A DNA stretch of 64,000 bases, taken from Escherichia coli. Lineage in GTDB: Bacteria > Pseudomonadota > Gammaproteobacteria > Enterobacterales > Enterobacteriaceae. Below, in pieces: positions 25,166 through 25,527 of the stretch. The notes under the pieces were generated by a model. It had not been told where the DNA came from. It saw only the letters and a list, made by a program, of their open reading frames with translations, and did not search any database. How positions within the stretch are numbered: the stretch's first letter is position 1; each line of letters begins with the position of its first letter. A program made the position numbers and the translations under genes. The stretch lies in the NCBI RefSeq assembly GCF_001677475.2, contig NZ_CP015229.1. One strand, 5' to 3'.

Positions 25166-25527
25166 ATGAGAAAAAAGCTGGCTTTTCTTGATACCAGTCT
25201 TGACGATTTACGCGCATTTCCAGAATCGTCTCGACAGGAAATTGGCTATCAACTCGCCAGGAAATTGGCTATCAACTCGACAGGATCCAACAAGGGTTAA
25301 ACCCATACGACTGGAAACCTTTTACAACTATCGGCCCGGGTGTGCGAGAGATTCGTACTCGCGATGCTGATGGGATCTATCGCGTCATGTATGTCGCAAA
25401 ATTTGAAGAAGCGGTTTACGTATTGCATTGTTTTCAAAAGAAAACACAGACTACCAGTCAATCGGATATTGATTTAGCCAAACGACGCTATAAAGAACTT
25501 GTTCAGGAGCGGAAAAATGAAAATTGA
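25166..25527 (+). pseudogene. HigB-like (Gp49/COG4679-type, RelE/ParE superfamily) toxin gene, frameshifted by a 23-bp tandem duplication
   Basis: RBS aaggatggag then ATG 25166; reads MRKKLAFLDTSLDDLRAFPESSRQEIGYQL then hits a stop at about 25300; the C-terminal part continues in another frame (ORF 25342..25527: ...REIRTRDADGIYRVMYVAKFEEAVYVLHCFQKKTQTTSQ...). Deleting one repeat copy restores a single ~112-aa ORF with the HxFxKKTQ motif. Confidence 0.7.
25234..25279 (+). repeat. 23-bp tandem duplication inside the toxin gene
   Basis: acaggaaattggctatcaactcg followed by ccaggaaattggctatcaactcg, then acagga again; 23 bp is not a multiple of 3. Confidence 0.9.

Follow-up and report, generated by a model that had tools for sequence, protein, structure and literature searches.

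We examined a 64,000-nucleotide stretch of the Escherichia coli contig NZ_CP015229.1 (assembly GCF_001677475.2; hereafter the window, with positions counted from its first base), in which a toxin-like gene between yegH and asmA is interrupted by a 23-bp tandem duplication. The locus reads as a chromosomal type II toxin–antitoxin pair with the toxin encoded first. Judging from its translation and its Pfam match, the plus-strand segment 25166-25527 is a Gp49/HigB-like toxin gene whose original 339 bp have become, with the additional 23, a 362-bp pseudogene, and it is followed on the same strand by an intact open reading frame (ORF; 25517-25807) predicted to encode the 96-amino-acid antitoxin, which Pfam PF13744 matches on identical genes assign to the HTH_37/XRE type. 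The antitoxin gene overlaps the original toxin stop codon (TGA, 25525-25527) by 11 nt and has an AGGAG of its own at 25505-25509, 7 nt upstream of its ATG at 25517. We consider it very probable that slippage at direct repeats made this +23 allele, with a frameshift that renders the toxin null and leaves the antitoxin an orphan.

The 23-bp unit is present in 2.4 head-to-tail copies at 25230-25285. Sequence was read directly and tandem arrays were called with Tandem Repeats Finder, which reports this array, one of four in the whole window, with a period of 23, 2.4 copies, 93% matches and a score of 105. In the register used here, which is arbitrary anywhere within 25230-25285, the first copy (acaggaaattggctatcaactcg, 25234-25256) corresponds to the columns that are extra relative to all intact alleles, and the second (ccaggaaattggctatcaactcg, 25257-25279) follows directly; the two have the same base at 22 of 23 positions, the mismatch being the first base of the second copy (C for A). 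A preliminary description of this DNA had recognized a 23-bp tandem duplication in the toxin gene, and the sequence agrees with it to the base. The flanking repeat that it gave, acagga, is present (at 25280-25285, directly after the second copy) but is really part of something longer, a 10-mer. This 10-bp direct repeat (CTCGACAGGA) stands at 25230-25239, where intact alleles have it as well, and again at 25276-25285, and a middle copy with one change (CTCGCCAGGA, 25253-25262) spans the junction made by the duplication. All of these elements are given on the plus strand.

From the ATG at 25166, the ORF in the window runs for 44 codons and ends at a TAA at 25298-25300. Since 23 is not divisible by three, the extra bases cause a frameshift, so that the toxin reading frame is broken after codon 30 (Leu30) and the premature, plus-strand stop, which limits the product to 44 amino acids, lies in the shifted frame 19 bp beyond the second copy, in line with the earlier estimate of about 20 bp. 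Removing one 23-bp unit rejoins the frames into a 112-amino-acid protein. Residues 13-102 of this repaired protein align with the entire Pfam Gp49 model (PF05973, positions 1-90 of 90, E = 6.5e-31), and it also matches the phage protein family phrog_2523 (1e-36); against the NCBIfam RelE/ParE model TIGR02683 it scores 27 bits, under the cut-off of 62.85, and its similarity to the Streptococcus pneumoniae HigB structure 6AF3 is weak (E = 0.01). On these sequence grounds we assign the gene to the predicted Gp49/HigB-like type II toxins of the RelE/ParE superfamily. A search of an anti-phage defence library gave weak matches only.

The repaired protein is residue for residue the intact protein P0003, found at 10 E. 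coli loci, and the 75 bp 5′ of the toxin start codon are the same as in intact alleles. The +23 duplication is therefore the sole lesion of the toxin gene, and the proposal that it is the inactivating one is upheld. As the frameshift removes about 80% of the Gp49 domain, the truncated toxin would be expected to have lost its activity entirely. Programmed frameshifting as a means of rescuing the toxin was considered and dropped, as no slippery site is evident by eye between the duplication and the stop and nothing else supports it.

Relative to hundreds of intact alleles, the window allele is an insertion and not a chance repeat. Our comparison set consisted of 5,426 RefSeq complete E. coli genomes, in which the module has matches in 911 records, 793 of them with a coverage of 80% or more. 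Full-length matches among the matches listed span 743 bp of sequence against the 766-bp query, i.e. they are 23 bp shorter, and both unit copies together occur in none of the 5,426 genomes searched. A single-copy 75-mer with two perfect 10-mers is present exactly in 631 of the 742 matching RefSeq records. Plasmid homologues from Pantoea (71% identity) and Pseudomonas (64%) align without an insertion here and without the 10-bp repeat, and no intact toxin that carries the 23-bp repeat in frame came to light among homologues at this distance. In the 71%-identical toxin of the Pantoea agglomerans plasmid pAR8b_B (L027, 401-733), codon 36 is an in-frame TGA, and the annotation gives a shortened coding sequence; this toxin also looks inactivated and has an intact XRE antitoxin beside it. 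For the wider window, the best identity to a RefSeq complete E. coli genome is 97.8% for 39000-51000 (mdtABCD-baeSR) and 98.3% for 21500-29500; the toxin–antitoxin module itself is about 99% identical once the 23-bp gap is excluded. The lineage of the window seems to be poorly represented among complete genomes.

Replication slippage at direct repeats gives rise to short duplications and deletions, with the hotspots of the lacI type as the classical case. Here, the starting point would be an intact toxin gene holding CTCGACAGGA twice, perfect and 23 bp apart. That arrangement is found in Sakai and in the 631 RefSeq records, showing that the repeats predate the duplication, and because the two 10-mers sit in different reading frames (S-R-Q-E vs L-D-R-I), the repeat is a nucleotide coincidence and not a peptide repeat. 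During replication, the nascent strand would slip backwards, from the second repeat onto the first, and the intervening 23 bp would be copied again, yielding the tandem duplication; translation would then leave its frame after Leu30 and meet the TAA after 44 residues, giving a null toxin, and the antitoxin, which keeps its own ribosome-binding site, would be left as an orphan.

Slippage at direct repeats predicts deletion of the 23-bp interval as well as its duplication, and a junction-specific 44-mer detected the deletion, reciprocal to +23 and located at the same repeats, in 58 of the 5,426 RefSeq genomes. This 44-nt query shares no 28-mer with intact alleles; with a 75-nt deletion-junction query, BLAST joined the pieces and the alleles were not separable. 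In strains SCEC020007 and NCCP 13918, RefSeq annotates the toxin gene as frameshifted and 316 bp long (23 bp less than 339), and in alignments of −23 alleles exactly one repeat unit is absent, as verified in L023 (NZ_CP025627.1), L024 (NZ_CM167686.1) and L025 (NZ_CP017442.1). The exact deletion junction is found in 9 of the 58 genomes, including six bovine O157:H7 strains, and the other 49 have a different haplotype (ST540, ST167 and relatives). Between O157:H7 strain 4276 and Sakai the deletion, an event both recent and independent, is the sole difference over 3,067 aligned columns; strain 4276 and the second deletion haplotype are distinguished by 12 of 690 positions. No exact match was obtained for either of the two −23 frameshift peptides, probably a consequence of gene callers having picked other ORFs. 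As these repeats have lost the interval on two or more backgrounds, the site is a recurrent hotspot, where −23 has arisen at least twice and +23 at least once. In view of the 58 deletion genomes we infer slippage as the physical mechanism; it was the mechanism initially proposed, though between two acagga repeats, in whose place the 10-mer CTCGACAGGA now stands.

The +23 allele is rare outside its own lineage: the duplication junction was not found in GTDB species-representative genomes, nor in JGI metagenome contigs when A or C was allowed at all three repeat positions. Within the toxin–antitoxin module, only two sites distinguish the duplication alleles from one another. Their surroundings (5.9 kb) are mosaic, differing by up to 45 single nucleotide polymorphisms (SNPs) that fall in blocks shared with intact strains. 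Because the flanks differ to this extent and in clustered blocks, the allele is a lineage polymorphism that has outlasted several recombination events, not a fresh mutation of the isolate. The preliminary description had called the lesion recent; this holds in a relative sense at best, given that diversified strains with such mosaic flanks carry it and that its two copies differ at one base.

That base raises a difficulty for the slippage reading. All sampled duplication alleles have A, C and A, in this order, where the three 10-mers vary (A/C/A), and several observations count against a simple slippage event. Copies made by slippage should be identical at birth, and these, at 22 of 23 bases, are not quite so. 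A single slippage on an intact allele with two perfect repeats (A/A) would give A/A/A, so that A/C/A requires one additional event or more; the peptide that an A/A/A intermediate would encode had no match in an exact look-up. Of the 10 intact loci with the identical toxin, 8 (C/A; L007, L009-L013, L015 and L016) have this C in their first repeat, where it is synonymous (CGA to CGC, Arg23), and since it already exists there, a plain later point mutation in the duplication would be a coincidence. Literature searches on this E. coli module, by locus tag, by neighbour genes and by tandem duplication together with toxin–antitoxin, returned nothing specific, which also gives the reading no help. In RefSeq complete genomes the C variant is absent.

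At window position 25068 a G/A polymorphism in yegH changes Gly to Ser near the C-terminus; duplication alleles and the intact locus L014 have A, and C/A alleles have G. L014 is the closest intact relative, with two perfect repeats and 1 SNP in 4.2 kb from the duplication allele L002. Given the A at 25068 that the duplication alleles share with L014, and this near identity to L002, the background of the duplication was probably an A/A haplotype, whose perfect repeats are what slippage predicts. The Ser form of YegH is also common in genomes without the toxin–antitoxin pair, which suggests recombination at the 3′ end of yegH and weakens the case for A at 25068 being exclusive to the duplication lineage; among carriers of the pair, the site still splits duplication alleles and L014 from C/A alleles. 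As to the middle C, it may stem from parallel mutation or from import out of a C/A allele, or it may be a mark of traffic between duplicated and single-copy states. With the A-to-C change at 25257, a CCAGG site is created and a 4-bp mini-palindrome, GCCA..TGGC, becomes perfect.

Slippage within one molecule has to be weighed against other ways in which such an allele could be made or maintained. That the duplication is a sequencing or assembly artefact is a practically negligible prospect, for which nothing speaks beyond the general possibility of such errors: the same A/C/A duplication is present, base for base, in 11 independent records (L001-L006, L020, L029, L031, L033 and L035), comprising NCBI assemblies, Logan assemblies of separate runs and one ENA metagenome, and the 44-amino-acid truncated product is indexed on 24 contigs. 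A different origin, in which a misaligned exchange or template switch between an A/A and a C/A allele would have produced A/C/A in one step, removes the coincidence of the middle C, draws on two parental allele types that are both known on near-identical haplotypes and fits a region where recombination is frequent, as the mosaic flanks of the duplication alleles indicate. It demands, however, that both alleles be present in one cell and that the switch be confined to the 4 bases (CTCG) 5′ of the variable site, and a later A-to-C change, which also perfects the mini-palindrome, could have given the C instead; we consider an origin by exchange unlikely.

A reversible on/off state had also been suggested for the toxin, and in its strongest form the locus would be a contingency-like switch, with +23 as OFF, precise loss of one unit as ON and L014 or the C/A alleles as revertants. 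A tandem repeat of 22/23 identity can in principle delete precisely; removal of the second unit from A/C/A leaves A/A and removal of the first leaves C/A, both of which exist as intact forms on nearly the same haplotype, with L014 (A/A) 1 SNP per 4.2 kb from L002. The rare C is restricted to loci encoding the same toxin protein, and three copy-number states (−23, 0 and +23) are present in the species. We nevertheless think such a switch improbable, as there are only two units and no long simple-sequence tract, the −23 state is unable to revert, and the 10-bp repeat is not conserved in the 64-71% homologues, which gives no sign of selection on the hotspot. Nor do the eight C/A alleles, all G at 25068 where duplication alleles are all A, look like simple revertants of the sampled lineage. 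Among the longest contigs sampled, no intact toxin was found beside the exact antitoxin or the exact YegH of the window, and every pair-bearing locus was duplicated; the OFF state that did arise within a clone, in O157:H7, arose by the −23 deletion. Reversal is thus mechanistically possible for +23, but no revertant was found nested among duplication-bearing strains. A related proposal makes the 10-bp repeat pair a mutational switch that works in two directions, with +23 as a heritable but reversible OFF state and the synonymous C as the footprint of passage through it; this we likewise hold to be improbable; were it true, chromosomal toxin activity would be toggled at the population level instead of undergoing plain decay. 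Selection against the toxin, the other motive offered at the outset, concerns why lesions persist: a costly toxin would be lost adaptively, with its lesions fixed by positive selection. At least four independent lesion types affect this gene, namely +23 (the window), −23 (the 58 genomes, on at least two backgrounds), a 1-bp deletion (SCU-172) and a 5′ replacement (042 and about 100 others), the antitoxin is annotated as intact in every RefSeq genome whose annotation was inspected, and orphan antitoxins have been reported to be abundant across E. coli (PMC10790755). The same toxin-first pattern is expected under neutral decay, however, because prior loss of the antitoxin would free the toxin and poison the cell; the hotspot for −23 and +23 raises recurrence without any selection; and most carriers keep an intact gene, as the 631 exact single-copy matches attest. 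Adaptive loss is a possible but somewhat unlikely account of these lesions.

In its architecture the locus belongs with known pairs. Gp49-domain HigB toxins are encoded by a gene that is followed by the gene for a helix-turn-helix (HTH) antitoxin, and HigB2 is a ribonuclease neutralized by its antitoxin (PMC5906591). We took as our comparison class the pairs of Gp49 HigB and HTH-XRE proteins, which include Acinetobacter baumannii HigBA2, Mycobacterium tuberculosis HigBA2/3 and Tad-Ata of Paracoccus plasmids. Like these, the repaired toxin is small (112 amino acids) and has a full-length PF05973 match, and its gene comes first and is overlapped by an HTH antitoxin gene; unlike them, the toxin gene in the window is a frameshifted pseudogene, and the pair is predicted to be nonfunctional. 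The lesion itself resembles lacI-type slippage hotspots in its perfect 10-bp repeat 23 bp apart, in a unit equal to the repeat spacing and in the reciprocal deletion found elsewhere, and departs from them in the one-base mismatch between the window copies, for which a single slippage offers no explanation. With phase-variable contingency loci it has in common that a change in repeat copy number shifts the frame and that three copy-number states occur in the species. Such loci are characterized by tracts of many short units that switch genes on and off at a high rate, whereas this gene has one or two units of 23 bp, a deletion that is irreversible and a repeat that is not conserved in homologues, and no switching in the ON direction was seen within a clone. 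As in the orphan antitoxins of E. coli, an intact 96-amino-acid antitoxin ORF with its own Shine-Dalgarno sequence adjoins a disrupted cognate toxin; compared with other orphans, the lesion here is precisely defined and lies at a site mutated repeatedly in both directions.

The event is ordinary gene decay in a known gene family and of a well-understood kind, and it reveals no new kind of system. The new details, a recurrent two-way hotspot and an odd middle base, are modest. The locus offers a base-level example of toxin–antitoxin decay, in which loss begins with the toxin, at a slippage hotspot that the gene itself contains, and leaves the antitoxin as an orphan. As the same repeat pair has yielded +23 and −23 in unrelated E. 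coli lineages, the gene could serve as a marker of slippage-type mutation. Annotators should expect this toxin to be present in some members of a clone and absent from others, e.g. in O157:H7.

The pair is carried by about one in six E. coli genomes. In the window, the antitoxin has a G-to-A change at 25649 that results in A45T, and this exact protein is on record as P0002. The antitoxin, now an orphan, may continue to be expressed. A45T is also found in a sub-lineage that includes L005 and L020; the exact protein is on 18 contigs, and both places shown carry the duplication. A second antitoxin polymorphism, V15D at position 25560, segregates in duplication and intact alleles alike. A consensus scan of the plus strand for sigma-70-like promoters found none, and by eye only a TATAAT at 25146-25151 is apparent.

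Upstream lies yegH (23508-25091, plus strand), identified from its ORF, from Pfam matches of identical loci and from the RefSeq annotation of the homologous locus as encoding a TerC/CBS/CorC membrane protein. Just 3′ of it, a pattern scan found an inverted repeat with a 13-pair stem (25098-25130, unstranded; terminator-like on the minus strand), which is likely the yegH terminator. Downstream, asmA occupies 25860-27713 on the minus strand, as identified by its ORF and annotation. In 042-type genomes (L019, NC_017626.1, 812-1202 vs L030 3085-3376), the toxin promoter and the first ~64 codons are replaced by ~390 bp, a sequence that is the yegH-asmA spacer of genomes without the toxin–antitoxin pair; this hybrid junction may mark gain of the module or its partial loss.

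Elsewhere in the window, a type I toxin–antitoxin array lies between the yegL side and mdtA, where three tandem SIB RNA genes (38579-39384; Rfam RF00113, 138-150 bits) coincide with a tandem array (38600-39528; 328-bp repeat, 2.8 copies). K-12 has two SIB copies at this place. Further Rfam matches at gathering score are located at 23029-23066 (JUMPstart upstream of wza), 52744-52829 (CyaR), 3961-4031 and 61341-61411 (two naRNA4, or REP-type, elements) and 8502-8551 (algC RNA motif).
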